From IMG/VR virus record IMGVR_UViG_2684622620_000012: 27,901 bases of DNA, one strand, 5' to 3'. The notes under the pieces were generated by a model. The model was given only the letters and a program-made list of their open reading frames with translations, was not told the origin of the DNA and made no database searches. Shown here one piece after another: positions 290 through 16,234 of the stretch (the first letter of the stretch is position 1; the number at the start of each line of letters is the position of its first letter). Position numbers and translations under genes: made by a program. The DNA comes from a virus. Lineage: Duplodnaviria > Heunggongvirae > Uroviricota > Caudoviricetes.

Positions 290-493
290 TTAACGCCGTA
301 ACTTGTTTGGCTTCGTCCATTGGTACGCCTTTTCGTTTTCCCGCCGCTGGTGGCGTTCCTGTTGCAGCACAACGGAAACAGGCGCTGAACACCTGTTAAT
401 TTTGCTTGCTGGTTGTTTGATTCCGGCAATGCTGCGGATCATCTCCAGCATATCGGCTTCGGTGATGGTCATAGGTTTCCTATCAGCACTCAT
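290..493 (-). CDS. hypothetical small protein, about 67 aa
   Basis: Track ORF 290..499 opens with TTG; first ATG is at 493. No clear Shine-Dalgarno. A plus-strand ORF 303..503 competes. Confidence 0.3.
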   Translation of the reverse strand: MSADRKPMTITEADMLEMIRSIAGIKQPASKINRCSAPVSVVLQQERHQRRENEKAYQWTKPNKLRR

Positions 494-521
494 ATCCAAT
501 TAATAAGTTCAATACAATGGA

Positions 522-1106
522 TTATCCCGTTTTAGTGACTAACCATTGCAGAATAACGATAATTAAATATGTTAATGTGCCAGTTCCAAGAAGTATTAAT
601 AATTGATAGCAACGTAGGGCAATATTACTAATCGATTTTTGCATCACGATATTCACTGGCTCAGCCACACACTCTTTAGATCTTATCGATAGAATACTTG
701 GAACTTCTCTATTTATTGATAATATTTCACATTGAATAGACTCACTAGGTGCAAGGCTTTCAAACTTGATAATATAGCGACCATCCTGTTCAATATTTTC
801 TTCAAAATGGTGGACAGGCCAAAAATTAATATGCATTGGCTTATAGTTAAAAACCAATGATATATTAGTAGCACTTTCTCGCCCTTCATTAACAAGAATA
901 ATAGATCGTGTATACACCAACTGTGAATTAGATATTACCTCACCATTAGCATTCCGTAAGGGTTCATTGAGAAGAAAAGTAAATCCATGCTGATAACCAT
1001 AGGATAACTTTGCCTTGCTTTTAAATCTGTTATTCAGTATCCATGTTAAAATCGCTATAAAAAAAGAAAATAGTTCTTTCCCATAAAGATTAAAAAAACT
1101 CATCAC
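522..1106 (-). CDS. membrane protein with N- and C-terminal transmembrane helices, 194 aa
   Basis: Hydrophobic helices FSFFIAILTWIL (N-term) and LLILLGTGTLTYLIIVILQWLV (C-term) flank a ~140 aa soluble region. GTG at 1106 and ATG at 1103, with AAGGAAA upstream. Markedly AT-rich compared with neighbours. Confidence 0.6.
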   Translation of the reverse strand: MMSFFNLYGKELFSFFIAILTWILNNRFKSKAKLSYGYQHGFTFLLNEPLRNANGEVISNSQLVYTRSIILVNEGRESATNISLVFNYKPMHINFWPVHHFEENIEQDGRYIIKFESLAPSESIQCEILSINREVPSILSIRSKECVAEPVNIVMQKSISNIALRCYQLLILLGTGTLTYLIIVILQWLVTKTG

Positions 1107-1225
1107 ACATTTCCTTCAGTAATCTGATTCTGCTGTCAAAGTTACCAGCACTATAGTCATTCATCCACATTGCGACAAGAAGGTTACAGCACGTTCAATC
1201 ACACCTTAGGAAATCTTAGGGGGCT

Positions 1226-1499
1226 GGTTGACACTTTCCGGCTTAAGACCTTAATAAATCTTAATATCGCAGGTTGACACACTTGACACTTTTTCGGGAA
1301 AAACCTTAACAAAACTTAACCATCCCTGGCATTTCTAAGCATGGCAACTTGACACTTTTCGCGATTTTTTCGGTTTTTTGACGTGGTGAATATGGTACAA
1401 GGCCAGTAATGGCGCGGCTTCCAGCAAGGTTGACACTTTTTCGCGTTCAGAGTGTAAAGTGTCAACCTGGCAAGCTGCTCAACTTGACACTTTTTGAGG
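1226..1499. repeat. array of six direct and one inverted copy of GGTTGACACTTTT(CG) (iteron-like)
   Basis: Direct copies at about 1226-1239, 1272-1280, 1281-1298, 1345-1363, 1426-1445 and 1481-1499; inverted copy AAAGTGTCAACC at 1457-1468. Second motif CTTAA(T/C)AAA(A/T)CTTAA occurs twice at 1248-1266 and 1305-1320. Confidence 0.7.
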
Positions 1500-2027
1500 T
1501 CATTGATGGCCTGATTTTTCCCATTCAGCCAGGGCGTTTAGTCCTGCCTCACTCCATGTGTCCTGTTCATCGGGACAATCGCTGGCAACATAGCATAGTT
1601 CACAACGCAGCATATGAATTGCCAGCCAGGCATTACCCCGCAAATTGTATTGTTCAAAGTAATGCTGTCCTTCATCATCCTCAAGGCAGATAGCACCATC
1701 ATCAAGAAAGTGCACTTCCCAGCCTAATTCCCCGGCTGCATTCAGCACACGCTGCCGTATGTCATCGTCCGTTACTGGCGCAGGGATTTTACCGTCTCTG
1801 GCCTTAACTGCTTTCCAGAACTCGCCCCACGTCATTTCCAGCGTTCTCTCTGGCCACATTTCAGAAACGGTGTCTTTCCCCTGTGCTGGTGGGCTGTTCC
1901 GCTGATCTGTCGCATCCACATCAATTTTTTTGCCAGACATGATCACTTCGCCTTTCTCGATCCAGTCGTAAACTGTCTGGCGGCTTACGCCTTTGTATTT
2001 GGCGTATTCGGCTTTACTCATCAACAT
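1500..2027 (-). CDS. DNA-binding protein with N-terminal helix-turn-helix (MerR/excisionase-like), about 175 aa
   Basis: N-terminal SKAEYAKYKGVSRQTVYDWIEKGEV resembles HTH_17/excisionase-type motifs. GAGGTGA sits 5 nt upstream of the ATG at 2027; the track ATG at 2045 lacks an SD. Confidence 0.6.
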   Translation of the reverse strand: MLMSKAEYAKYKGVSRQTVYDWIEKGEVIMSGKKIDVDATDQRNSPPAQGKDTVSEMWPERTLEMTWGEFWKAVKARDGKIPAPVTDDDIRQRVLNAAGELGWEVHFLDDGAICLEDDEGQHYFEQYNLRGNAWLAIHMLRCELCYVASDCPDEQDTWSEAGLNALAEWEKSGHQ

Positions 2028-2127
2028 GTAGCTCACCTCATGCATATACGATAAAAAAATAATTTCATGCGGAAAGGGAATGCGTTGTGGGTATGGAGGA
2101 AAGGGGCAATAACCGCCCCTTACTGAT

Positions 2128-2400
2128 TCAGTTGCGCCAGGATGGCTGGCTAAGCGTGGTTTTCATTACATCATTGACGACCTGTTTTACGATTTCTGTG
2201 TTGGCAGTCGTGCTTTCAACATCAACAAAGCCATAATCGCCAATTTCCACCGTCAGGGATTCCAGTTTCTTCCCTAGAGCATCAGGCAACTCTCCACTGA
2301 ACCGGTGCTGAAGATTTTCCACCAGCAACGCCCTGAATGCCTCGCTGTTCTCTTTTTTCTGCCATAGCTGGCGTTTATCCACTCTGATATTTAATTTCAC
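2128..2400 (-). CDS. hypothetical protein, 90 aa
   Basis: GTG start with strong SD AAGAGGTGA 5 nt upstream; start overlaps the stop of the upstream gene (GTGA), suggesting translational coupling. Confidence 0.55.
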   Translation of the reverse strand: MKLNIRVDKRQLWQKKENSEAFRALLVENLQHRFSGELPDALGKKLESLTVEIGDYGFVDVESTTANTEIVKQVVNDVMKTTLSQPSWRN

Positions 2401-2564
2401 AGTCTCACCTCTTTAAGTGCCTTATCCATCAGTTGCCGAGCGATAACATGAATCGACGGTGCCACACCAAGCACAGATTTCTGACGCTCTTCGTCCTGGA
2501 TGCGTTGCAGGGCTTCGATCTGCCTCCGGGAAAGTAAAACTGGCTTTACTCCGTGATTTTTCAT
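2397..2564 (-). CDS. small putative ribbon-helix-helix-like DNA-binding protein, 55 aa
   Basis: MKNHGVKPVLLSRRQIEALQRIQ...: short beta-strand-like N-terminus followed by two predicted helices. ATG at 2564; stop overlaps the downstream GTG start. Fold assignment is tentative. Confidence 0.45.
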   Translation of the reverse strand: MKNHGVKPVLLSRRQIEALQRIQDEERQKSVLGVAPSIHVIARQLMDKALKEVRL

Positions 2565-2842
2565 GATGATCCCTTCTGAATGACAATAATTGCAATTATT
2601 GCACAAATTGAAATGATACCAGAGACAATTGCAATAAATGAAACGAAAAGCATCAATAAACCAACCTTCGGCACTGAATGCTCTGATTTTTCTGCAAAGG
2701 TATGGCAGATGTTGGTGCATGCAAACATAAAGGCAATAGCAGAAGAAACAGCGGGGAGTGAAAAGGGGAAGTTTTTATAAATACACGATTGTCGCCTCAC
2801 TGCAGGTTAACAGCCACAAGCTCCATGATAATAACTTGTTAA

Positions 2843-3166
2843 TTATTTCATCAGATTTTTCATTATTTGCGCGATTGAGTACACAAGCAAAAACTCGGCA
2901 GCCGCAAGAGTATAAAAAACATAAATTCGCTTAGCCCACCGACGATGAAAGAACTCCTCAGCATGGCCGGATGTTCGAGATACAAGCCATGCACCTACTG
3001 CACACAGAGCAGGTGCAATGAGCACAGTTATAAACCAGATTGTGATGCCCATCCCATACCTACTGATAATAGCCATTGGTATTGCAAAAATGAATGTTAG
3101 AGCAGCATTAGCTAATAGAATATCTTTTAAAGTATTTTCAATTAGTTTTTCTAGATTATCTTTCAT
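2843..3166 (-). CDS. small integral membrane protein, 107 aa
   Basis: Three hydrophobic segments (e.g. ILLANAALTFIFAIPMAII, ITIWFITVLIAPALCAVGAWLV); ATG at 3166 preceded by a G-rich SD; AT-rich. Confidence 0.6.
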   Translation of the reverse strand: MKDNLEKLIENTLKDILLANAALTFIFAIPMAIISRYGMGITIWFITVLIAPALCAVGAWLVSRTSGHAEEFFHRRWAKRIYVFYTLAAAEFLLVYSIAQIMKNLMK

Positions 3167-3196
3167 CTAATCCCCCCCGTTGAACATTAATATATA

Positions 3197-3219
3197 AAAG
3201 CCCCTTACTAAGGGGCTTT
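3197..3219. terminator. perfect hairpin AAAGCCCCTTA/TAAGGGGCTTT between lipoprotein and membrane protein genes
   Basis: 11 bp inverted repeat with A-run upstream and T-rich sequence downstream on the minus strand; sits just after the lipoprotein stop at 3231. Confidence 0.55.
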
Positions 3220-3230
3220 GCACGGATTGT

Positions 3231-4373
3231 TTAAAGGGAACTTTTTTTCGCCCCTTCAATTTCTGCCTGACAAATTTCGTCATTTGTAAATGAGTACTGC
3301 AAATAGACATATCCCTGAGTGGAATTGTTCGCTCTGGCCTCAATATATATAGTATCAATATTGTTTTTTAATGGTATTTCTTTTGTTCCCTTCCATGTGG
3401 CAGATAAGAAGCGTTCTTTTTTGTTTAGCCCCCTCATCCAGTCCTGAGGATCTTTCCAAATTGAACCAGCCAGCAAAAAGTCTGTAGTATCAGCCTTTCC
3501 ATACAGAGAACTTAAAGAATTACTCAATTCTTCAAACTTGGATTTAAGAGCCAATCCATAGCTATCAGTATCAATATTTTTTCCTAAAGCCCGTATTTGA
3601 CATAAACCAGCTTTCGGGGAGATCAACAAACCATACATTTCAAAATCTGCGTTTTGCTTCGGTAATTTATCAGAAGTATACAGATTCACACTGTCTGGTA
3701 GTGGCTTGAGCTTAGCACCGATCATATCTTCGATGTTTTTCTGTGTAAGACCGGCTTCTAAGCCAAACGGACCATCCGCTGGCGGGAGTAAAGGAAGTTG
3801 CTCTTGGGAATTTTTGGCTGTTACTTCCGTTTCAGTACTGTTTTTTGCGTCATTATCTTGTACTGATGCCAGCTTAACTTCAGCGAGGCCATACTTGGCT
3901 GTGAGGTACTTTTGCTGCAACATTGCCATGGTCTGCTCTTCAGTGGCAACAGTAGATAATTTTAGTACCTTTATCAGACCACCACTATACTGACGAGCAT
4001 CAGCTTTGGCTTCGTTGATTTTTGCATCTAAGCTGTCAATTTCAGTTTTAATTGAAGCCGCAAGCTCAGGATCAGGTTTTACTCCAGATACAACAACATC
4101 AATTTTGGCGCCTGATTCAATAGCATTAATACGCTGTTCCAAAAGCGCTTTATTAGTTCCTAATATTTCCAGTCTTGCTGTTGTCAGATTTTTTATCAAC
4201 CCACCAGAAAACTGCTGGTCAACTTCCTTAGCTGCTGATATTTCACCTTCCGTTTGCGACAGTTCAGCTTTAAGAGCCGCTACTTCCTGTTTCTGTTCTG
4301 GAGTTAACTCTTCTGGCCCACATCCGGTTAACATTACTATACCGACTAATGTTGCAATTAAAGTTTTATTCAT
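3231..4373 (-). CDS. lipoprotein with coiled-coil-like internal repeats, 380 aa
   Basis: Signal peptide plus lipobox (MNKTLIATLVGIVMLTGC); an internal ~40 aa segment is duplicated (QQFSGGLIKNLTTARLEILG... and RQYSGGLIKVLKLSTVATEE); ATG at 4373; AT-rich. Confidence 0.75.
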   Translation of the reverse strand: MNKTLIATLVGIVMLTGCGPEELTPEQKQEVAALKAELSQTEGEISAAKEVDQQFSGGLIKNLTTARLEILGTNKALLEQRINAIESGAKIDVVVSGVKPDPELAASIKTEIDSLDAKINEAKADARQYSGGLIKVLKLSTVATEEQTMAMLQQKYLTAKYGLAEVKLASVQDNDAKNSTETEVTAKNSQEQLPLLPPADGPFGLEAGLTQKNIEDMIGAKLKPLPDSVNLYTSDKLPKQNADFEMYGLLISPKAGLCQIRALGKNIDTDSYGLALKSKFEELSNSLSSLYGKADTTDFLLAGSIWKDPQDWMRGLNKKERFLSATWKGTKEIPLKNNIDTIYIEARANNSTQGYVYLQYSFTNDEICQAEIEGAKKSSL

Positions 4374-4507
4374 ATCCCTATTCCAAATGAAAATATTCAG
4401 ATTAATCGTATCAGGAACCCAGATGCAATTGAATATTCATCTGCTCAGCAACGTAGTAGATTTCCTCAGAAAGCATCAACAAAAAACCAAGAGAATCCCA
4501 TCCTCTG

Positions 4508-4795
4508 TTACTGACTACAATTGTTCTTTTTTTGGTATTTCCTGAATGCCTCACCATTGGGCTGATGTAATCCCATCCCGACATGTGCCCGGCTGATGGT
4601 TTTGCGCATCTCCCCGAAATTATCCTGCCTTGCTGGTGGGCGTGCTGCCTTGTGGATACATTCCGCGCGACGTTTTGCCGCCTGTTCCCGTGCCTTGTCA
4701 TCATTCGCCAGCATGATGACCTCAGCCCACCGAGCCGCCGCTCTCCGGTACAGACCACGCGCTTCCAGTGCTTCCGCTTTGCTGTCGTGAATCAT
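4508..4795 (-). CDS. PerC-like transcriptional regulator (tentative), 95 aa
   Basis: N-terminal SKAEALEARGLYRRAAARWAEVIM resembles the conserved N-terminus of PerC/Pch-type regulators as I recall it; start overlaps the FinO-like stop (ATGA). Confidence 0.45.
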   Translation of the reverse strand: MIHDSKAEALEARGLYRRAAARWAEVIMLANDDKAREQAAKRRAECIHKAARPPARQDNFGEMRKTISRAHVGMGLHQPNGEAFRKYQKKNNCSQ

Positions 4796-5370
4796 GCGCC
4801 TGTTTTCTCCTTTGCTGCCCGGCGCTGACGTTTGCGCTTCTCATTCAGCGCCACCAGCCGCGTTTCTGCGTCCTGTTGTTCCTGTGGTGTCACCTCGCCG
4901 CACGGCTGGCCTTTCAGGTCGTAGCGTACCCCACCAGCCATTAAGGCGCGGTAATAGCGCGGACACTGCGCATAAGATGCCAGCGTCGCACGTAATGCCC
5001 CTGGCCCGAATGCCAGCCCCCTGACGGCGAGATTCTGCATCAGGTCGTCAAATATTCCCACCTTAAGCGGCTTCGGTGCTTCCCGGTTGAATAATTCAGG
5101 CCACAACTCAGTAAGGCGGTTAACGCGCCTGCGATTTTTGCGCTGGCGTTTGGTCATATGCCGCCACGATGTCGCCCCTGTGAGCTTCTGCTGCGCTTTC
5201 TGGTTACCGAGCATCACTTTATGCGCCGATGGGGTTTTATCCTGCTCCTGTGCCGCCTGCGTCGTTTTCTGCGGCGTGCCGTAAATGCCTTTCGGTTTTC
5301 TGTTAATGGTCAGCTTAGTCATGCTTTGCCCCATCGTTTTTACTGATTGTTTCATGCCCGGTACTTTCAT
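4792..5370 (-). CDS. FinO/ProQ-domain RNA-binding protein with basic N-terminal extension, 192 aa
   Basis: C-terminal half (LTELWPELFN...PLKVGIFDDLMQNL...LRATLASYAQCPRYYRALMAGGVRYDLKGQPCGEV) aligns by eye with the ProQ N-terminal/FinO domain of E. coli ProQ. Start uncertain: no good SD at any in-frame ATG. Confidence 0.75.
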   Translation of the reverse strand: MKVPGMKQSVKTMGQSMTKLTINRKPKGIYGTPQKTTQAAQEQDKTPSAHKVMLGNQKAQQKLTGATSWRHMTKRQRKNRRRVNRLTELWPELFNREAPKPLKVGIFDDLMQNLAVRGLAFGPGALRATLASYAQCPRYYRALMAGGVRYDLKGQPCGEVTPQEQQDAETRLVALNEKRKRQRRAAKEKTGA

Positions 5371-5399
5371 CTACCATCAACGTCAAAACTACGAAACGG

Positions 5400-5674
5400 G
5401 ATGCATTCATATAGATGCGCTGAACGTATACTGCAATAATGGCTGGGTGGAAATCGACAAAAACATCGCCGAAAACGCCTAACGTGGTGTGGCAGTGGGC
5501 CGGAAAAACTGGTTGTTCGCAGGTTCCAACAGCGGTGGCGAACATACTGCGGTGCTGTACTTGCTGATCGGCACGTGCCGTCTGAACAAGGAGGAGCCAG
5601 AAAAATGGTTGCGTTACGTCATTGAGCATATCCCGGACTGGACGGCAAACCGGGTACGTGATCTGTTGTCCTAG
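5400..5674 (+). pseudogene. IS66-family transposase, C-terminal remnant with in-frame stop
   Basis: GWVEIDKNIAENA*RGVAVGRKNWLFAGSNSGGEHTAVLYLLIGTCRLN... matches the conserved IS66 TnpC C-terminus (EIDNN...GRKNWLF...); TAA at 5480-5482 interrupts the frame; only ~90 codons of a ~500 aa transposase are present. Confidence 0.65.
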
Positions 5675-5962
5675 AAAGCCGATCTAACCGGGCAATAAAT
5701 ATCAAAACGGTTTTGGCGAGCCGCTTGCATCTCAACAAAACAATTGATATTTAAATAATAAAAATACATACACTACAATAAGTTAAATTATGAGGTTATA
5801 TTGGGGATACTTCACATAAAGAGTTATGATGACCCCGGATAACTTTATCGAAAGTACCGATGATAATCTAAGTTAACAATGAGTTTCAGTTTTTCGATTC
5901 ATACATGACATGGCTTGCACTATGTAAGTGATTAATTATTAATATTATTTTACGCATAATCG

Positions 5963-5990
5963 AGAAGGGGGCGCTTAAGTACCCCCAAAC
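5963..5990. repeat. AAGGGGGCGCT + CTTAAGTACCCCCAAA motif, shared with the integrase upstream region
   Basis: AAGTACCCCCAA (5977-5988) recurs exactly at 16276-16287; CTTAAGTACCCC(C)AAA recurs inverted at 16299-16314; AAGGGGCGCT recurs at 16333-16342. Also forms a local hairpin (GGGGG...CCCCC) just 3' of the peptidase gene. Confidence 0.4.
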
Positions 5991-5992
5991 TT

Positions 5993-6889
5993 TTAGATAT
6001 GCCGAATAAAGGATTGGTTATTAGAGCCTTCAATAAGCTTAACTGTAGGAGTGTTGAAAAGGGTTTGTGTACAACAGTGATGTACTGTAAGAACTGCGTC
6101 CTGAAACTGGGGATGGTCTTCAAGCTGAGTGATCCGCAAACCTAATTCAATGGCTCTCTCTGCGTGGATATGCCGAGAATGATCCTTCGTATCCGTACGA
6201 TTGTTTAAGCTTTTGACAATCGCAGTGGCGAGTTCGCTACGCCGAGGTTCAGGTAAATCTTTAAGCATTCCATTTTTTAACCATTCAGTAACCAAATCAT
6301 CGGCAAGCTGAATAGCTTTGCTAGCTGTATCAAAAATGGTAGGTGGGTAGCGCGAGATGATTGTTTGCCAAATCGGGAGGCTGGAAGGTTCTTTTTGAAT
6401 GCTATCAATAGCATTTTTTAACTCTTCCAAAATACCATAAGCTGAAAGACCACCAAAGATATGAGGATCAAAAGGTCCGATACTTGAATGATGCCCCATT
6501 ACAATTTCTTTGCAGGCACACGCAATCATTGTTCCTGCAGACATGCTCATTTGAGGAACAATGGCCCGAATATCACCATTAAAAAGCTTTTTAAGGTAGT
6601 AAACCAGAGACTCAGCCGCAGTTATAGAACCACCAGGGGTATGCAAGAAAAGGTCTAAGCCTTTCGTTCTATCCATTCCGTTAACAACAGCCATGAAACC
6701 ATTTTTGTCATCATCATTGATGCTGACATGCTGATGATTACCGTTATGTAAAAAGTCTGTGTAGTAACATATTACGTTTCTATCAGTACTGTCACTCAAA
6801 GCTTTTATGTACTTACGGCGGACAATATCAAAGCGAGAATCGTCTTGGAGGCTTTGGATTTCCTCCAAGACTTGGGCCAGATTGGGCAT
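5993..6889 (-). CDS. ClpP/crotonase-fold serine peptidase (S49/SDH-like family), 298 aa
   Basis: [20 protein letters not shown]...[23 protein letters not shown] matches the TPGG...SAGT nucleophile region of ClpP/SppA/serine-dehydrogenase-type proteases; AAGGA sits 8 nt upstream of the ATG; AT-rich. Confidence 0.65.
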
Positions 6890-6907
6890 GGGATGGTAAC
6901 GTCCTTG

Positions 6908-7132
6908 TTAAGCTTTTGTAGTGGTGCTTACATGCAAAGTTGAGTAGCCAGTTGTTCTGGTAGAACACTTAAGCTTAGTCATCTCATGTTGATGAGAAAA
7001 ACTTGCAACACCGCTTAAGCCGCCGAACTCATGGCTCATTGCGCCAAATTGTTGTGGGAACTGGATACCTGAAGTATTTGATGCCACAAGTCCCGTTTCC
7101 AAGAGAATTTTTTCGTAATTGATTTCAGCCAT
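6908..7132 (-). CDS. small hypothetical protein, 74 aa, upstream partner of the peptidase
   Basis: ATG at 7132 with GGAG 8 nt upstream; stops 18 bp before the peptidase start. S/T/G-rich with no recognised motif. Confidence 0.4.
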   Translation of the reverse strand: MAEINYEKILLETGLVASNTSGIQFPQQFGAMSHEFGGLSGVASFSHQHEMTKLKCSTRTTGYSTLHVSTTTKA

Positions 7133-7210
7133 GTTAGTACTCCGCTAAATGTAGTGCTTGCGTCAATGCTTCGACACTACATGTTGTTTTTATAGTTCTT
7201 TTTAGACAGA

Positions 7211-7244
7211 AAAACCCCGCTGTCTGGCGAGGTTTTATTTTTCT
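7211..7244. terminator. hairpin AAAACCCCGC...GCGAGGTTTT with flanking T-runs
   Basis: ~10 bp imperfect stem with loop TGTCTG, followed by TTTATTTTTC on plus and TTTTTC on minus; separates the helicase-fragment region from the peptidase operon. Confidence 0.35.
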
Positions 7245-7379
7245 TATGCTGATAATAGCAGCAATTATAAGAAGTCAAAGTCTTTTTATGTAAATTTTAA
7301 GCTGTTAGGGGTGATTTTTCTCTAACTTGTTGATTCGTTCTCAAGCTAAGTCATGTTTTAAGAGCGGCAACTGCACTAA

Positions 7380-8274
7380 TAACCTGCCCGTTCTCAGACA
7401 TGATTCGTGAAAATGCGAGACGTTTCAGCTGCTCCATATCGAGTCCAGGAGCCCGTAGTAATGCATCAGACAGTTCCTGCTACTTTCCGCTGTACATCGA
7501 CAGCAGCATTTTCCTGACTGCTGCGCTCGAACCTACCGAATGCCTGAACATCATCAGATGCCAGTGGTTTAACCGGTGAGAATCTGTTCATCAGATAATC
7601 GAGAATGTTTGCAGTCTGCTTGCTTACGGCAGACACACCACGAGTAAAGGATTTAAGCGTGTCCAGATTCCACCCGCTCTGCGGTTTTTTGCCTGTTCGT
7701 TAAAATCCGGATCGTTGCGGATAACGTCAAGCAATTCTGCCTCTACTTCTGCCCGCTGCGCCATGACGCGTAGGTTAGTCAGTTCGCCGACCATGCCGCA
7801 GAATAAAGCATCCATCTGAGTATTTGGCGCAGCAACCTTACCGGCATAATCCACCAGCATTCCCACGCAATCAGCTAGCCGCTTCAGGTGGTCACAGAAG
7901 GCGTACAGCTTTACCTCCAGTGCCTCTTTGCTGTTCCGTTTCCTCAGCAGCAGCGCCCGCTCTTTTTCCGGGGTCCTTATCTTCCTCACTGACGCGACAG
8001 TTAAACTGGAAAATAACACGGCGACGGGCAACGCTTCCGGCGTGTTCGGTAAAAATCATCGGCGTATTATTCGTGGCCACAACCACCGCCCGGCATATTC
8101 TGTAAAACTTACGCTCTGTCCCTGTCGCATCCAGTGCGCAATCATGATCAGAGTTCTGGTAAAGCGGTGAATATCGCCGCATAGTCCACATGATGTCGCA
8201 AAACTTTTCAGCTCTTCACGCTCTATGTAAGTCATACCCTGAGGTATGTAACGTTCTGTTTTCATTTTTAACAT
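7380..8274 (-). pseudogene. decayed C-terminal fragment of a D5/P4-alpha-type (SF3) primase-helicase
   Basis: Three broken ORFs (8056..8274, 7892..8191, 7624..8031). The middle one carries VVVATNNTPMIFTEHAGSVARRRVIFQFN, resembling SF3 helicase motif C plus the downstream RR...F segment of D5/P4 primases. No Walker A/B upstream; frame changes and an in-frame stop present. Confidence 0.4.
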
Positions 8275-8280
8275 TCCTGA

Positions 8281-8680
8281 TTTTTTAATTCCTCACCTGC
8301 TGCGCAGTGAGAATTTATGAAGTTAATAACAATATGATTTTAAATATATTTTTAAGCACTCACTTTTTAATCCTTATATATACGCAAAAGTGAGGTAAAT
8401 AGTTAAGTTTTAGTTAATATCTTGCATGGTATGTTTTTTAACCTACCTGTTATTTTTATTACCTCATTTCTATTAACTCACCATTCCTCACTTTTGTTCC
8501 TCACTTTTTGTTATTCTTGTTCTGCTCCTCAGTCGTTTTCTTTATTGTTGTAATATGTTGTTTTGCAATGTTTTTTTAATTCCTCATTTTTTGATCTATA
8601 TACAGGTGAGAAAGTGAGGAAAACAGGGATGATTTTTAAATATTCCCTTCCCCCCTCACTTTTACGCTTCACTTTTTACA
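8281..8680. repeat. iteron-rich AT-rich region (more than 10 copies of TTCCTCACTTTT in both orientations), candidate origin
   Basis: Copies at about 8291, 8358, 8388 (inv), 8461, 8477, 8486, 8499, 8581, 8606-8620 (inv pair), 8653, 8668; exact 15-mer TTTTTTAATTCCTCA at 8281-8295 and 8573-8587; lies immediately 3' of the helicase gene. Confidence 0.6.
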
Positions 8681-10088
8681 GTGGGCGCACATCATCACCG
8701 TCAATAGCGATTACGCCGTCACCTTCCAGCTTGTACAGCCAGCGCCGGAAGTTTTTCATCTCATACCCCAGCTTTTTCATGTCATCGCGCAACAACGGAA
8801 TAGTACATTTATCTCCGCGTTGCGTGCGTGAACGAATACAACCCCATAGTGCGGCGTGATTCTCCGTCTTGTTCCCAGCTTCCTCGATGCGCTCCAGTTC
8901 AACCGGCGGACGGGGCTTATCCTCCAGCACCAGCGACGTGATTAACTCCCCGCCCTCATCCTTGAAAAGCTCAACCTCGCGCAAATCGCAAGCCATTTCT
9001 TTCAGTTCCTCCGCATCCTTCATCTTGGTACATGCGATAACCAGGGCTTCACTGCCTGCACCTTCACGGCGTATCCGGTATTCTGCATCCAGTGCTGCAC
9101 GAAACGCACTGGAACCGCGCGCACCCTTTGTTTCATCCTTGCCGGAATGGTGAATTACCAGCACTGTAGCGCCTGTACGTCGTTTCAGTTCGTCACATCC
9201 ATGGACAAATGCCCCCATATCCCGCGCATCATTTTCATCGCTGCCACCAAAGCAACGCGCCAGAGTATCCAGAATAATCATGCGTACAGGTTTACCCGTT
9301 TCCTGCTCAACCTGTCGGGCAGCAATAACCATTTCATCAACATCACCCGGTGCGGCCGGAAAAATTGGACGATTTACCAGGTATAGATTTTTCACCTGCT
9401 CACTGTTCACCAGTTCCCATGCCTTGATACGACGAGGAACACCGATCCCGCCCTCACCAACGACATACATCACCGCACCATGTACAACCCTGCGACCTCC
9501 CCACGGGATACCGGTAGCAACATGACACGCCCACGAACACGCAAGGAACGACTTATAAGAACCGCTCGCACCGTATGTGCTACATAGCGAATTAGCCGGA
9601 ATCACGCCCTTAACTACATAGCTAAGCTGTGAATCATATCCTTCCGATCCAATGCTCATTGGTAGCGTGGTTTTTCGCTGGCTGTATTGCTCGTCAGTAA
9701 GTATTTCCCCGCGCTCAGCCTGTTCGCGGATCCGTTGCAGGTAGTCGTGCCAGTTCTCCGGCTCCCCGTCGGTGATACCTTTGTATAATTTCGCCTCCTG
9801 TACGCCAGCCAGCGCCAGCTTTTCAGCGATAGCATTGATCTGGATTGGTTCGATCTCCCCCGCGAGATAGACACGCGCAAAGCGGCGTTCATCGTCGACA
9901 ATGCGGATATTCGCCAGGTCTGCCAGTTGCTTTGGCCCCAGGTAAACAGGTGGTACGTTATCGCCGTGTTTTCGTCCTTCGCTTTCAATCCAGTGTTGAG
10001 CATGGGCGTAAGCATCCGTCCCGGCAAAAATGATTACCTCGGTGAATTTATCCTTCGGCTGATATTTTAAATTCGGTGCGTTTTTCAC
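8676..10088 (-). CDS. RecA-like NTPase, RepA/DnaB-type replicative helicase (AAA_25-like), 470 aa
   Basis: P-loop YGASGSYKS, Walker B-like MIILDTLARCF, and VLVIHHSGKDETKGARGSSAF typical of RepA/DnaB-family helicases; GTG start with GGGAGGT 6 nt upstream, overlapping the upstream stop. Confidence 0.7.
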   Translation of the reverse strand: MKNAPNLKYQPKDKFTEVIIFAGTDAYAHAQHWIESEGRKHGDNVPPVYLGPKQLADLANIRIVDDERRFARVYLAGEIEPIQINAIAEKLALAGVQEAKLYKGITDGEPENWHDYLQRIREQAERGEILTDEQYSQRKTTLPMSIGSEGYDSQLSYVVKGVIPANSLCSTYGASGSYKSFLACSWACHVATGIPWGGRRVVHGAVMYVVGEGGIGVPRRIKAWELVNSEQVKNLYLVNRPIFPAAPGDVDEMVIAARQVEQETGKPVRMIILDTLARCFGGSDENDARDMGAFVHGCDELKRRTGATVLVIHHSGKDETKGARGSSAFRAALDAEYRIRREGAGSEALVIACTKMKDAEELKEMACDLREVELFKDEGGELITSLVLEDKPRPPVELERIEEAGNKTENHAALWGCIRSRTQRGDKCTIPLLRDDMKKLGYEMKNFRRWLYKLEGDGVIAIDGDDVRPL

Positions 10089-10375
10089 TTCTTACCTCCC
10101 GCAACCAACATTGCCCGGATTTTTTTAATATTCGTGGCTGCACGTCTCGCCACCGCCTGTTGTTTGTTTTCAACCAGAATAAAATCACGCTCAAACTGAC
10201 GGCGCGGCATTACGCAGTCATATTCGTAAGCCTCACGGCGGTAGGTGATATTGCCTGGCGTAACGTGACGAATAACCACTCGTCCCCCACGTCTGGTGTC
10301 GCGGTAAATATCTCCGTGTCTGATTTCAGGCCGAGAGAGACCGCTGGCAGTAAAGCCAGAATTTTTCTTTTTCAT
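10085..10375 (-). CDS. hypothetical basic protein, 96 aa
   Basis: Member of a chain of tightly packed minus-strand small genes; stop overlaps the helicase GTG start. Confidence 0.5.
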   Translation of the reverse strand: MKKKNSGFTASGLSRPEIRHGDIYRDTRRGGRVVIRHVTPGNITYRREAYEYDCVMPRRQFERDFILVENKQQAVARRAATNIKKIRAMLVAGGKK

Positions 10376-13701: not shown

Positions 13702-13899
13702 TCAGGTAGCTGTTCCGCGTGATTCCGCAATACGCTGATTAATCCACTCGTCAATTTCACTCTCAACGAAAGCAATAGCTCGCGAGCCAATTTTAACTGA
13801 TGCAGGAAATTTACCTTGCCCCATAAGGCGATAAATCCATGCCTTGCTATATCCAGTTCTACGCTGAACTTCTGTTAAACGAATAAGCGTATTTGACAT
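13702..13899 (-). CDS. alpA: AlpA-family transcriptional regulator, 65 aa
   Basis: LIRLTEVQRRTGYSKAWIYRLMGQGKFPASVKIGSRAIAFVESEIDEWI is a close match to the AlpA (CP4-57 regulatory protein) HTH signature. Confidence 0.85.
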   Translation of the reverse strand: MSNTLIRLTEVQRRTGYSKAWIYRLMGQGKFPASVKIGSRAIAFVESEIDEWINQRIAESRGTAT

Positions 13900-14891: not shown

Positions 14892-15019
14892 ACGCACACC
14901 TCAGCGTCCTCTACTGTAGTGGCTGTACCAGTCCGTCGAGGTGTACGGATTTTCGGGAGCGACCCTAGACACAGCCTTTTCTTTCGTCGCTCAAAGTCTA
15001 CTACTGTATACGCAACCAG

Positions 15020-16234
15020 TCATCCACATTTTCCGAACTTGCCATGCACCACGTTACCGCCATGTTCGAGCGAATCCATATAGTCGGCGTACCACTGGAG
15101 CATCTCGCGCCGCCCGTCCAGATATTGCGCATGATTGTACGTGCCACGAATTGAGTTCTTATCAACGTGTGCAAGCTGCGTTTCTATCCACGCGGTGTTA
15201 TAGCCCTGCTCATGTAAAATCGTGCTCATGGTGTGCCGGAATCCATGACCAGTAACCTTTCCGTTATAGCCGATGCGTTTAAATACTTGGTTTATGCTAG
15301 CCTCGCTCATTGTTTTCCTTGGATCATTGCGGCCGGGAAACATAAGCGGATAATTACCAGTTAATTCTTTAATCTGCCCAATAAGAGAAAGAGCCTGCTT
15401 AGACAAAGGCACCACATGAGGGCGACGCATTTTCATCCGTGAAGCAGGTATCTCCCAGATAGCCTTGTTGAGATCGATTTCATCCCATAATGCACCGCGC
15501 AGTTCGCCAGTTCGCAAACCAGTGATAATCAGTAGACGAGCCGCCATAACAACCAATGCACTTCCTGAGTAACTGGACAATGCCTTGAAAAAATCAGGCA
15601 ATTCTTTGGCTGTGAGGAAAGGATAATGATTAGATTCATGGCCTTGCATCGCGCTAGTAAGATCTGGGGCAGGGTTATACTCTGCGCGACCAGTGACTAT
15701 TGCATAGCGGAAAACTTCCCCGCACCGCTGCCTCACTTTTTTGGCTTTTTCTGTAGCACCGCGCCCCTCGATGCGTCGCAGCACATTCAGAAGTTCAAGT
15801 GGTTTGATTTCGGCAATTGGTTTTTTGCCAATGTAAGGGAACACATCTTTGTTGAAGGCTTCGAGGATATCTGAAGCATAACCAGCAGACCATTTTTTTA
15901 ATTTGCTGCTGTGCCACTCAAGGGCAATATCTTTGAAGGTATTGTTTAACTGCGTTTCCCGGGCAATCTTTTCCTCTCGTTTCGCTTCCATCGGATCGAT
16001 ACCCCCAGCGATACCCCTTTTAGCTTCTTCACGTTTTGCACGAGCATCAGCCAAGGTAACTTCAGGATACACACCTAGTGCTAACAGCTTCTCTTTACCA
16101 GCTACACGATATTTAAAGCGCCAGTATTTTCCTCCACTAGGTTTTACCAGGAGATACAGACCACCACCATCAGCCAGCTTGTAAGCCTTCTCTTTTGGCT
16201 TGGCAGTGTCTATTTGACGGGCATTGAGTTTCAC
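15020..16234 (-). CDS. int: tyrosine integrase, P4-type (DUF4102 N-terminus plus phage integrase catalytic domain), 404 aa
   Basis: N-terminal KLNARQIDTAKPKEKAYKLADGGGLYLLVKPSGGKYWRFKYR is the hallmark of P4-family integrases; C-terminal HGFRHT...LAH...RGTY contains the catalytic residues; GTG start with GGAGGT upstream. Confidence 0.9.
   Translation of the reverse strand: MKLNARQIDTAKPKEKAYKLADGGGLYLLVKPSGGKYWRFKYRVAGKEKLLALGVYPEVTLADARAKREEAKRGIAGGIDPMEAKREEKIARETQLNNTFKDIALEWHSSKLKKWSAGYASDILEAFNKDVFPYIGKKPIAEIKPLELLNVLRRIEGRGATEKAKKVRQRCGEVFRYAIVTGRAEYNPAPDLTSAMQGHESNHYPFLTAKELPDFFKALSSYSGSALVVMAARLLIITGLRTGELRGALWDEIDLNKAIWEIPASRMKMRRPHVVPLSKQALSLIGQIKELTGNYPLMFPGRNDPRKTMSEASINQVFKRIGYNGKVTGHGFRHTMSTILHEQGYNTAWIETQLAHVDKNSIRGTYNHAQYLDGRREMLQWYADYMDSLEHGGNVVHGKFGKCG

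Follow-up and report, generated by a model that had tools for sequence, protein, structure and literature searches.

Has a fragment of an insertion sequence changed how a neighboring pair of regulatory genes is expressed? The question is raised by one locus of the window, the whole stretch of 27,901 nucleotides analyzed here (IMG/VR virus record IMGVR_UViG_2684622620_000012), in which IS66-like sequence lies upstream of a ProQ/FinO-domain gene and a PerC-family gene. A preliminary description had proposed that the native promoter and 5' context of the pair were replaced, and that the FinO-like gene might now be silent or driven from IS-derived sequence.

The IS66 sequence is a remnant and not a functional element, given that it lacks a complete tnpA-tnpB-tnpC set and contains two stop codons. 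Its parts are:

5414-5728, plus strand: IS66-family remnant, consisting of tnpC codons 430-523 and the non-coding right end

5414-5698, plus strand: tnpC part of the remnant (codons 430-523), with nonsense codons at 5480-5482 and 5672-5674

5699-5728, plus strand: non-coding right end of the remnant, with the terminal repeat

ISCro1 and a related plasmid IS66 copy each gave one significant match to the window, at 5414-5729/5730, with 86.7-87.1% identity (blastn, E values of 1e-107 to 2e-109). TnpC residues 430-523 of 523 aligned with 84% identity (tblastn, E of 8e-47), and the Pfam domain DDE_Tnp_IS66_C was detected in the remnant (3.2e-12; 46.9 bits, with a cut-off of 30). The remnant has matches in more than 4,000 plasmid records; those listed as best all begin at 5414, and the closest IS66 copy among them is 88.4% identical. 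The fragment with an in-frame TAA that was first placed at about 5400-5674 is thus real, with its boundaries corrected to 5414-5728. The TAA (5480-5482) occupies the position of a Leu codon in intact copies. What had been taken for the end of the fragment at 5674 is really the second nonsense codon (TGG to TAG, 5672-5674), and the tnpC frame extends to 5698. A search for the terminal repeat at 5700-5740 located it: the right terminus, ...GGCGAGCCGCTTGC (5715-5728), differs by one mismatch from the ...CGCTTAC of intact copies, and the left end, GTAAGCG..., is absent.

The likeness to ISCro1 and ISEc23-like IS66 elements is a 315-nt ungapped alignment (~87%) over the 3' end of tnpC and the right terminus ...GCCGCTT(A/G)C. 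Compared with these elements, the remnant keeps 316 of about 2,700 bp, is without tnpA, tnpB, 82% of tnpC and the left end, and has the two nonsense codons. Nothing in the window matched TnpA or TnpB, residues 1-429 of TnpC are absent, and a search for further IS66 pieces found none.

The remnant is separated from the leader of the ProQ/FinO gene by a short segment:

5373-5413, no strand: junction filler of 41 bp, origin unassigned, without homology to the relatives compared and with none significant to IS66

We compared this segment by local alignment with the 140 nt that lie just before the homologous part of two IS copies. The alignments were no better than those of shuffled sequences (p = 0.43 and 0.14), and decayed IS66 sequence was rejected as its source. 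We read the scar as the trace of a past IS insertion that was followed by loss of the left ~2.4 kb of the element. Neither an empty site nor an intact IS beside the cargo described below was found in viral contigs (0 matches), metagenome contigs (2 matches, both scarred) or E. coli genomes, and the present sequences appear to fit arrival of either the IS or the cargo first.

The gene content of the window is that of a phage-inducible chromosomal island (PICI) of E. coli, and the locus is to be read in this light rather than as an isolated regulator pair from a plasmid or prophage. It encodes a tyrosine integrase (Pfam Phage_integrase set), AlpA (Phage_AlpA PF05930, 2.4e-19), AntA and a DUF4222 protein that is RgdR-like (49% identical to RgdR), and the int-alpA RNA scored 45.5 bits against an Rfam gathering score of 35.8. 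Its replication region consists of:

8676-10088, minus strand: RepA-family helicase gene, encoding the replication initiator of this island variant (Pfam AAA_25, 3.1e-44; RefSeq annotation)

8285-8677, no strand: island replication origin, with iterons (CCTCACTTT) in both orientations flanking an AT-rich core (30% GC)

The origin lies immediately 3' of the helicase gene. [quoted passage not shown] Among the features by which Fillol-Salom 2018 (PMC6092414) defined PICIs, the window has the integrase with AlpA and the replication gene followed by an iteron origin, and the RefSeq annotation has no structural genes between the integrase and the left part of the island. With its cargo the island is ~19 kb, its left end being outside the window, compared to ~12-15 kb in that definition. 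Two candidate functions were rejected: AlpA as an antiterminator, for which the literature matches concern the unrelated AlpA of P. aeruginosa, and the ProQ/FinO protein as the PICI regulator RgdR (ECs1581), which is a DUF4222 protein.

The closest known islands are the E. coli PICIs EcCICFT073, EcCIEDL933 (O-island 51, Sakai Sp7) and EcCIMP1. Like the window, these have int, alpA, (an antirepressor), an icd-like gene, RgdR/DUF4222, a replication gene with the iteron origin 3' of it, and post-origin genes that include a PerC allele, mostly in one direction (PMC6092414). The window differs from them in having a RepA-family helicase rather than a primase, and a 2.7 kb extra block with the IS66 scar between the origin and the ProQ/FinO and PerC genes. 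It also has the ProQ/FinO gene before PerC, whereas in Sakai Sp7 pchE is directly after ssb.

Both genes of the pair belong to the families to which they had been provisionally assigned. The features are:

4792-5322, minus strand: ProQ/FinO-domain gene, 176 aa (Pfam PF04352), starting at the conserved ATG at 5322

4508-4795, minus strand: PerC-family gene, 95 aa, intact (Pfam PF06069)

4479-4507, minus strand: hairpin with a U6 tract, CAGAGGAUGGGAUUCUCUUGGUUUUUUG, directly after the PerC stop codon, a probable weak intrinsic terminator

The ProQ/FinO ORF matched PF04352 with 83.5 bits (cut-off of 27; 1.3e-23), and the protein matched the ProQ NTD (1.4e-11), FinO (6.5e-10), NMB1681 (1.3e-8) and RocC (4e-8) in the PDB. 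The ORF is open to 5370 (192 aa, 4792-5370); the ATG at 5322 is kept in all relatives and is also the RefSeq start. There is a single FinO domain (residues 63-167) between basic tails that are probably disordered, and the PDB alignment places equivalents of ProQ K35, R58, Y70 and R80 in it, residues needed for RNA binding in ProQ and RocC. The PerC-like protein of 95 aa has a full-length PF06069 match (109.6 bits against 22.6; E of 9.1e-32; profile positions 1-89 of 90) and shares 51% identity with O157 Sakai PchE. The ProQ/FinO stop codon overlaps the PerC start codon by 4 nt (ATGA). Length, this overlap and the RBS are conserved across relatives of the pair, with the length of PerC unchanged in 5 of them. 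The hairpin and U-tract after PerC are in the same place in all relatives; in L006 and L007, homology to which stops at 4479, the terminator is strong and canonical (-18.3 kcal/mol).

The satellite protein shares the FinO domain with FinO (F plasmid), FopA (pCol1B9), ProQ and RocC, and at 176 aa it is close to the size of FinO. In contrast to these, it is encoded by a phage satellite and not by a plasmid or the core chromosome, and is a predicted RNA chaperone without a known cognate RNA. It appears to be unstudied (we found no experimental work on it in the literature searched) and is a reasonable target for work on RNA chaperones or satellite-helper regulation. The PerC-family protein resembles PerC (EPEC pEAF) and PchA-E (EHEC prophages and islands) in its full-length PF06069 and in its PICI or prophage location.

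An antisense RNA within proQ was also considered. The two plus-strand terminator-like hairpins found there occur at chance frequency and in coding sequence, with no plus-strand promoter, and the candidate was rejected. Some G-U or compensatory variation is seen in these hairpins in relatives.

It is highly improbable that the scar is a historical relic of no relevance, next to a pair that is a decaying passenger without function in this island. PICI PerC alleles vary: in PMC11773190, PchE, the 51%-identical homologue, is reported to be inactive on LEE1 and EcCIMP1_025 to repress LEE1. The former would fit decay, as would the ProQ/FinO pseudogene of E24377A and the frameshifted PerC copy of PU-1. 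However, the dN/dS of the ProQ/FinO gene versus relatives is 0.20-0.38, a family-wide value only, as the variant copies are at least 99.8% identical and give no statistical power for lineage-specific selection on ProQ or PerC. The conserved length, overlap and RBS and the retained RNA-binding residues also argue against decay.

The scar itself removed nothing that is conserved in relatives, and the leader, its RBS and both ORFs are intact.

5323-5372, minus strand: retained 50-nt leader with an RBS (GGGG 7-10 nt before the ATG)

Positions -1 to -16 of the leader are identical in all five relatives compared, and -1 to -50, the whole of the leader outside the origin, are common to the window and strain CI5, its closest relative on the 5' side. 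Homology upstream of ProQ ends at -16 in STEC276 and E. ruysiae, at -23 in A17, at -27 in 52F4, and at -50 in CI5 and the window; beyond -50, the window is unlike every IS-free relative. Because the IS-free relatives diverge from one another at these points, there would be no conserved native promoter to lose. There is also no room for a promoter in A17, PU-1 and EF7, because the preceding same-strand gene ends 23 nt, 36 nt and 35 nt (after ssb), respectively, before the ProQ start. In other relatives, the iteron origin is the sole sequence upstream of ProQ, and in CI5-type relatives the iterons abut -50. In A17, the stretch from the icd-like gene to ProQ has no canonical terminator.

These comparisons divide the claim of a replaced 5' context. 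The sequence beyond -50 is indeed foreign, but the leader and RBS are kept and relatives have no promoter in common. Likewise, the IS66-derived sequence upstream starts at a distance of 44 nt when counted from the ATG of the longest ORF (5370), the "tens of bp" first described, but of 92 nt when counted from the conserved ATG (5322). That IS66 insertion and deletion removed a promoter of the pair's own and left ProQ/FinO and PerC silent or IS-driven is, in our view, quite improbable. The foreign sequence would be consistent with it, and in CI5-type relatives the iterons next to -50 might contain part of a promoter. The coding strand from 5323 to 5859, which includes 5370-5400, had no sigma-70-like site in a consensus scan, although such scans for promoters and terminators are insensitive, their counts match chance (6 promoter-like sites found versus 7.1 expected), and their negatives are weak. 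Against promoter loss, nothing upstream of -16 is common to the relatives, which indicates that there is no common promoter, and three relatives leave no space for one. In addition, the face of the IS66 region toward ProQ is the antisense interior of tnpC, from which we know of no outward promoter and in which we saw by eye only weak matches (TTGACG-17-TACCGG and TTGCAG-17-TATATG). The variant is also unchanged across many assemblies, with intact ORFs.

The layout indicates that it is the whole accessory block, and not the IS66 scar, that changes the context upstream of the pair. The remaining features of the block are:

5729-5992, no strand: AT-rich spacer (31% GC), unique to this island variant

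5993-6889, minus strand: cargo gene for an SDH-family ClpP-fold serine protease, 298 aa (Pfam PF01972, 9.1e-19; phrog_11747, 4.6e-85)

6908-7132, minus strand: cargo ORF of 74 aa with a good RBS and without a family match

7206-7236, minus strand: canonical intrinsic terminator (10-bp stem at 7211-7236, U-tract at 7206-7214)

7624-8265, minus strand: disrupted post-origin gene, the first 58 codons of which match a 258-aa gene of strain A17

The lineage-specific block spans 5373-8082 (2.7 kb), and the scar is only its ProQ-proximal 316 bp. The block replaced most of the 258-aa post-origin gene: the A17-like gene is cut after codon 58, with an in-frame stop at 8056-8058, and the frame then runs on as a lineage-specific 135-aa ORF (7624-8031). 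The segment 5729-8082 is present in 6 of 5,426 complete genomes, always with the scar, and both matching metagenome contigs (n = 2) have the same block layout and scarred arrangement. Strains with this variant include APEC20/16, F9792 and F8111-1SC3, and in the assembly collection 866 indexed blocks contain the identical SDH protein. All eight contexts shown have the same layout and intact ProQ and PerC at an identity of at least 99.8%, at which ORF integrity is uninformative on selection since the insertion. The cargo had no PADLOC match to a defence system.

The transcriptional context of the pair is probably altered, and the element most likely to affect its expression is the terminator at 7206-7236 rather than the IS fragment. 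The terminator folds at -19 kcal/mol in its 60-nt context (z = -4.0; none of 200 shuffled sequences folds as stably), and the hairpin after the SDH gene (5967-5986, minus strand) is weak (z = -1.05), with a poor U-tract. A cargo-supplied promoter, in the 74-aa/SDH unit or in the spacer at 5729-5992, could make the pair constitutive and uncoupled from induction; we consider this possible, if rather unlikely. The terminator implies a new transcription unit downstream, the weak hairpin makes read-through into the pair plausible, and there is one weak promoter-like site on the minus strand (5889 to 5860). However, promoter-like sites are no more frequent than expected by chance, no convincing -10/-35 pair was seen by eye between 7206 and 7133, and Rho-dependent termination would be favored by the 670 nt of RNA that go untranslated.

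From the anatomy, boundaries, homologies and distribution above, we infer a model of transcription and polarity that we believe is probably correct: the pair is a cassette that lacks a promoter, is capped by a terminator and closes the replication operon, expressed by read-through, and in this lineage the block and scar rearranged the sequence upstream of it. ProQ/FinO and PerC would form a translationally coupled two-gene cassette with its own RBS, a terminator-like 3' end and no conserved promoter, situated beyond the origin and the genes for replication as the last part of a leftward replication operon, with read-through from upstream the most likely source of its transcripts. In relatives, this read-through would cross an origin region of 360-480 nt. 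Here, the block, made up of the remodelled post-origin ORF, the 74-aa ORF, the SDH-type protease and the AT-rich spacer, appears to have taken the place of most of the post-origin gene, with the inactive 3' end of an IS66 element resembling ISCro1 at its ProQ-proximal edge. The consequence, if any, would be polarity. Transcripts from the promoters of the island must cross the terminator, the weaker hairpin and an untranslated stretch of 670 nt, and expression of the pair is therefore probably reduced or driven by the transcription unit of the cargo.

SaPIs have a LexA-controlled operon I promoter. By analogy, Gram-negative PICIs may have a post-origin promoter, and one in the primase-type origin of a CI5-like ancestor might have been lost here; the origin, with any origin-proximal promoter, persists at 8266-8677. 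Terminator hairpins are the class of RNA 3' end bound by FinO domains. A speculative and unlikely reading is that the cassette is a dedicated RNA-based regulatory module of enterobacterial PICIs, in which the FinO protein would act on the 3' end of the island's own operon, on an island RNA such as the int-alpA RNA or on helper-phage transcripts, and that the cargo and IS66 rearrangement rewired it from induction-dependent to cargo-driven expression.

An IS scar beside intact genes is routine, and E. coli phage satellites carry the pair as a standard component that has already been annotated; we consider the finding real but ordinary. The pairing of FinO- and PerC-like genes, first described as noteworthy in itself, is not: E. 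coli genomes indicate that the pair is common in E. coli PICIs, of which the window is one, and PerC alleles in these islands are already published (PMC6092414, PMC11773190). The 5' junction of the pair is a recurrent recombination point, where the cargo is the 258-aa gene, ssb or, here, the protease block; this diversity of contexts was taken from E. coli genomes. The satellite FinO-domain protein is widespread, with DNA similar to the pair region in roughly one in four complete genomes of E. coli (1,403 of 5,426 by blastn, including 161 with matches over 80% or more of the pair; 293 by megablast). A cross-species survey of contigs added one locus, in E. ruysiae, of the primase type.

The window is a new variant within a well-described class of phage satellite and carries an ordinary IS scar. 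It is 100% identical to a chromosomal island of E. coli APEC20/16 and has the organisation that defines Gram-negative phage-inducible chromosomal islands (PICIs; PMC6092414). The island also encodes an AntA antirepressor and an Icd-like gene, in addition to the features below.

Island features
15020-16234, tyrosine integrase
14908-14975, minus strand, int-alpA RNA (Rfam RF02996, 45.5 bits versus a gathering threshold of 35.8)
13702-13899, AlpA regulator (PF05930, 2.4e-19)
10085-10375, minus strand, DUF4222 gene (49% identity, E 2e-25, to the published regulator RgdR/ECs1581)
8676-10088, RepA-family helicase
8285-8677, origin directly after the RepA helicase: CCTCACTTT iterons in both orientations flanking an AT-rich core, 30% GC
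4792-5370, minus strand, ProQ/FinO domain ORF (PF04352, E 1.3e-23)
4508-4795, minus strand, full-length PerC-family protein of 95 aa (PF06069, E 9.1e-32, 109.6 bits versus a cut-off of 22.6)

RgdR, from O-island 51, is a published regulator that acts on LEE and motility; its functionally important RGD motif is HGD in the DUF4222 protein of the window.

The ProQ/FinO gene product is, by homology, a FinO-class RNA-binding protein. It has one FinO domain with basic tails around it and matched the solved structures of the ProQ N-terminal domain (1.4e-11) and FinO (6.5e-10), and also NMB1681 and RocC. The structure-match alignment contained equivalents of ProQ K35, R58, Y70 and R80, residues of importance in the ProQ/RocC literature. 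At identical or related loci, RefSeq starts the gene at the 5322 ATG, for a 176-aa product. This ATG and the preceding 16 nt, with a GGGG Shine-Dalgarno-like run, were identical across the five relatives compared, and the longer ORF (to 5370) was open in two lineages only. The dN/dS of 0.20-0.38, a family-wide value that is not informative on the scar-bearing lineage, shows purifying selection on ProQ/FinO at the family level. The ProQ/FinO and PerC ORFs overlap by 4 nt (ATGA). The 95-aa protein, suspected from the outset to be PerC, is 51% identical to PchE and is probably a small PerC-type transcription factor.

Two terminator-like hairpins lie antisense to proQ/finO (5114-5140 and 5273-5299, plus strand), with G-U changes and one compensatory change in the alignment of relatives. 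They are probably meaningless, because they occur at chance frequency, within coding sequence and without a promoter. Directly after the cassette is a gene for a predicted lipoprotein of 380 aa (3231-4373, minus strand; signal peptide ending LTGC), for which no family match was found; it is frameshifted in APEC20/16 and absent from one metagenome contig.

The preliminary description overrated the oddity of the FinO/PerC pairing. The pair was present in 293 of 5,426 complete E. coli genomes (megablast, query 4400-5800); related DNA was in 1,403 of them (blastn, query 4508-5420), with at least 80% query coverage in 161. PerC alleles have been described as common PICI genes (PMC6092414, PMC11773190), and pchE itself lies in O-island 51, a PICI. 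They vary in activity: EcCIMP1_025 represses LEE1, and PchE is reported to be inactive (PMC11773190). In O157 Sakai Sp7 (O-island 51), the gene order is primase, origin, ECs1586, ssb, pchE; unlike in the window, pchE follows ssb by 10 nt (L020, 11104-12045) without a ProQ/FinO gene, which suggests that the FinO-domain gene is inserted in some post-origin modules and not in others.

The sequence upstream of the pair differed among islands.

What precedes the ProQ/FinO gene, and the gap to the ProQ start
STEC276 (primase type): primase, then iteron origin; 381 nt
CI5 (primase type): primase, then iteron origin; 356 nt
E. ruysiae (primase type): GGTAGAC iterons as in STEC276
52F4 (RepA type): RepA (pseudogene), then origin; 477 nt
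A17 (RepA type): 258-aa gene; 23 nt
PU-1 (DUF927 type): ssb; 36 nt
EF7-18-51 (DUF927 type): ssb; 35 nt
Window: SDH protease; 670 nt

Homology to the window stopped 16 (STEC276, E. ruysiae), 23 (A17), 27 (52F4) or 50 nt (CI5) upstream of the ProQ ATG. Every relative compared had a hairpin and U-tract directly after the PerC stop, a strong canonical terminator in A17 and 52F4 (-18.3 kcal/mol), and homology to these two stopped at 4479, just beyond the U-tract. The conserved unit thus appears to be the ribosome binding site, proQ/finO, perC and the terminator, without a conserved promoter. On the simplest reading, the cassette would close the replication operon that runs leftward in the island, and the 5' junction of the cassette would be a recurrent recombination point.

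The junction between the origin and ProQ/FinO behaves as an accessory hotspot. Different islands carry different cargo there (window 5346-8265; A17 locus L006, 6401-7174; 52F4 locus L007, 6949-7000): A17 has a 258-aa gene, of which 52F4 keeps a remnant, PU-1 and EF7 have ssb, and the window has a protease block. 52F4 is a deletion derivative that kept only the first codons of the 258-aa gene.

The window combines two island types. Its similarity to primase-type islands extends to 5338 in E. ruysiae (97.7% over 346-5338) and to 5372 in CI5, and returns from 9705 onwards, with a RepA-type replication module between; STEC276, CI5 and E. ruysiae are 95-98% identical on either side of this swap (5339-9704). 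Since homology resumes at 9705, the RepA helicase gene shares its first ~128 codons with the primase genes of other islands. Between 10200 and 8083 the window follows A17, through the origin and into the 258-aa gene (start 8265) as far as codon 58, after which it diverges, with an in-frame stop at 8056-8058 and the same frame continuing as a lineage-specific ORF to 7624. Because homology of relatives ends on either side, 5373-8082 is specific to this variant.

The variant-specific block
To 7624, minus strand, remodelled post-origin ORF
7211-7236 (stem) and 7206-7214 (U-tract), minus strand, canonical intrinsic terminator (-19 kcal/mol in a 60-nt context, z = -4.0)
Within 5993-7132, minus strand, 74-aa ORF upstream of the protease
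5993-6889, minus strand, SDH-type ClpP-fold serine protease
5967-5986, minus strand, weak hairpin
5729-5992, spacer of 31% GC
5414-5728, plus strand (opposite to the rest), IS66 scar

None of 200 shuffles was as stable as the terminator, and its A-tract/U-tract symmetry suggests that it could act in both directions. The 74-aa ORF and protease (5993-7132) had no match in PADLOC, and the closest protease relatives (35-48% identical) were in phages (Shewanella Mu-like, Porphyromonas, Gordonia) and plasmids; the protease could be a so far uncharacterised accessory or defence gene of the satellite. The block also contains an sRNA-like unit (7205-7300, minus strand) with sub-threshold Rfam matches only (isrJ, istR); promoter-like hexamers (TTGACT-15-TATTAT, TTTACA-19-TATAAT) lie ~45 nt upstream of the terminator hairpin.

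The scar-bearing variant is not a one-off. The scar version and 5729-8082 were each found in only 6 of the 5,426 genomes. The identical SDH protein occurred in 866 indexed blocks of the assembly collection, and all eight contexts inspected, plus two metagenome contigs, had the same layout at ≥99.5% identity with ProQ/FinO and PerC intact.

The IS66 transposase fragment reported previously is real and longer than described. It aligned without gaps to the 3' ends of ISCro1 and a related IS66-family copy (86.7-87.0% identity) and comprises the C-terminal TnpC residues (430-523 of 523) together with a non-coding right end of 30 nt. It runs from 5414 to 5728 rather than from about 5400 to 5674, and the terminal repeat sought at 5700-5740 is present (...GGCGAGCCGCTTGC, ending at 5728, versus ...CGCTTAC in intact copies). 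Its in-frame TAA (TTA to TAA, 5480-5482) was correctly noted and is joined by a second nonsense change (TGG to TAG, 5672-5674). These two are among the codon differences, 18 of which are synonymous and 15 non-synonymous. The matches comprised over 4,000 plasmid records; among the matches listed, the best all start at 5414 and the highest identity was 88.4%. An alignment search found no further IS66-derived sequence in the window, and the 41 nt at 5373-5413 had no significant similarity to IS66. The intact right end faces the cargo and the truncated interior faces ProQ, indicating that an IS66 element formerly lay between cargo and cassette or was brought in with the cargo. The element would have lost its left ~2.4 kb by a deletion whose other end is 5372/5373. 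Searches of E. coli genomes and of viral and metagenome contigs found neither an empty site nor an intact IS copy. In UTAK-5 (L012, 7234-8001), one of the contexts inspected, IS1 is inserted within the scar and 5657-5665 (9 bp) is duplicated.

The likeliest effect of the rearrangement is polarity, and not promoter replacement. The preliminary description placed IS66 tens of bp from the FinO-like start and proposed that the native promoter was lost, leaving the pair silent or IS-driven. The sequence upstream is indeed foreign, but the cause was misidentified, the distance to the conserved ATG is 92 nt and the relative-conserved upstream sequence appears to be all retained: positions -1 to -50 are the whole non-iteron spacer of CI5. 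We regard promoter loss as improbable. The RepA-type origin region (8266-8677) is also kept, with any origin-proximal promoter that serves the post-origin genes of A17. A consensus scan of the coding strand found no promoter-like site in 5323-5859 and a single weak one from 5889 to 5860, and its counts overall equalled the shuffle expectation; on visual inspection, even the best candidates close to the junction were poor (TTGACG-17-TACCGG, TTGCAG-17-TATATG). A cargo or spacer promoter as the main driver of the pair is somewhat less improbable than promoter loss, though still unlikely. A pair without function, carried as a passenger, seems to us very improbable. In A17, a crude terminator scan of the stretch from the icd-like gene to ProQ found nothing canonical, whereas the cargo of the window contains a canonical terminator. 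Island transcripts would have to pass that terminator (7206-7236), the hairpin 3' to the protease gene and 670 nt of untranslated RNA, imposing polarity on the pair; alternatively, the pair could depend on read-through from the 74-aa/SDH unit. We believe that read-through with polarity, including a contribution from cargo-unit transcription, is probably the correct picture.

The sole lead of wider interest is a widespread satellite-borne FinO-domain protein that is apparently unstudied. To date, the ProQ/FinO genes of PICIs appear in the literature only as annotations (PMC13612085) and are not discussed in the FinO/ProQ family review. Because the cassette ends in a terminator hairpin of the kind bound by FinO domains, it is a reasonable idea that the protein may act on its own cassette (autoregulation), on island RNAs or on helper RNAs. 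The structured int-alpA RNA, located between the integrase gene and the next island gene, is a conceivable partner.
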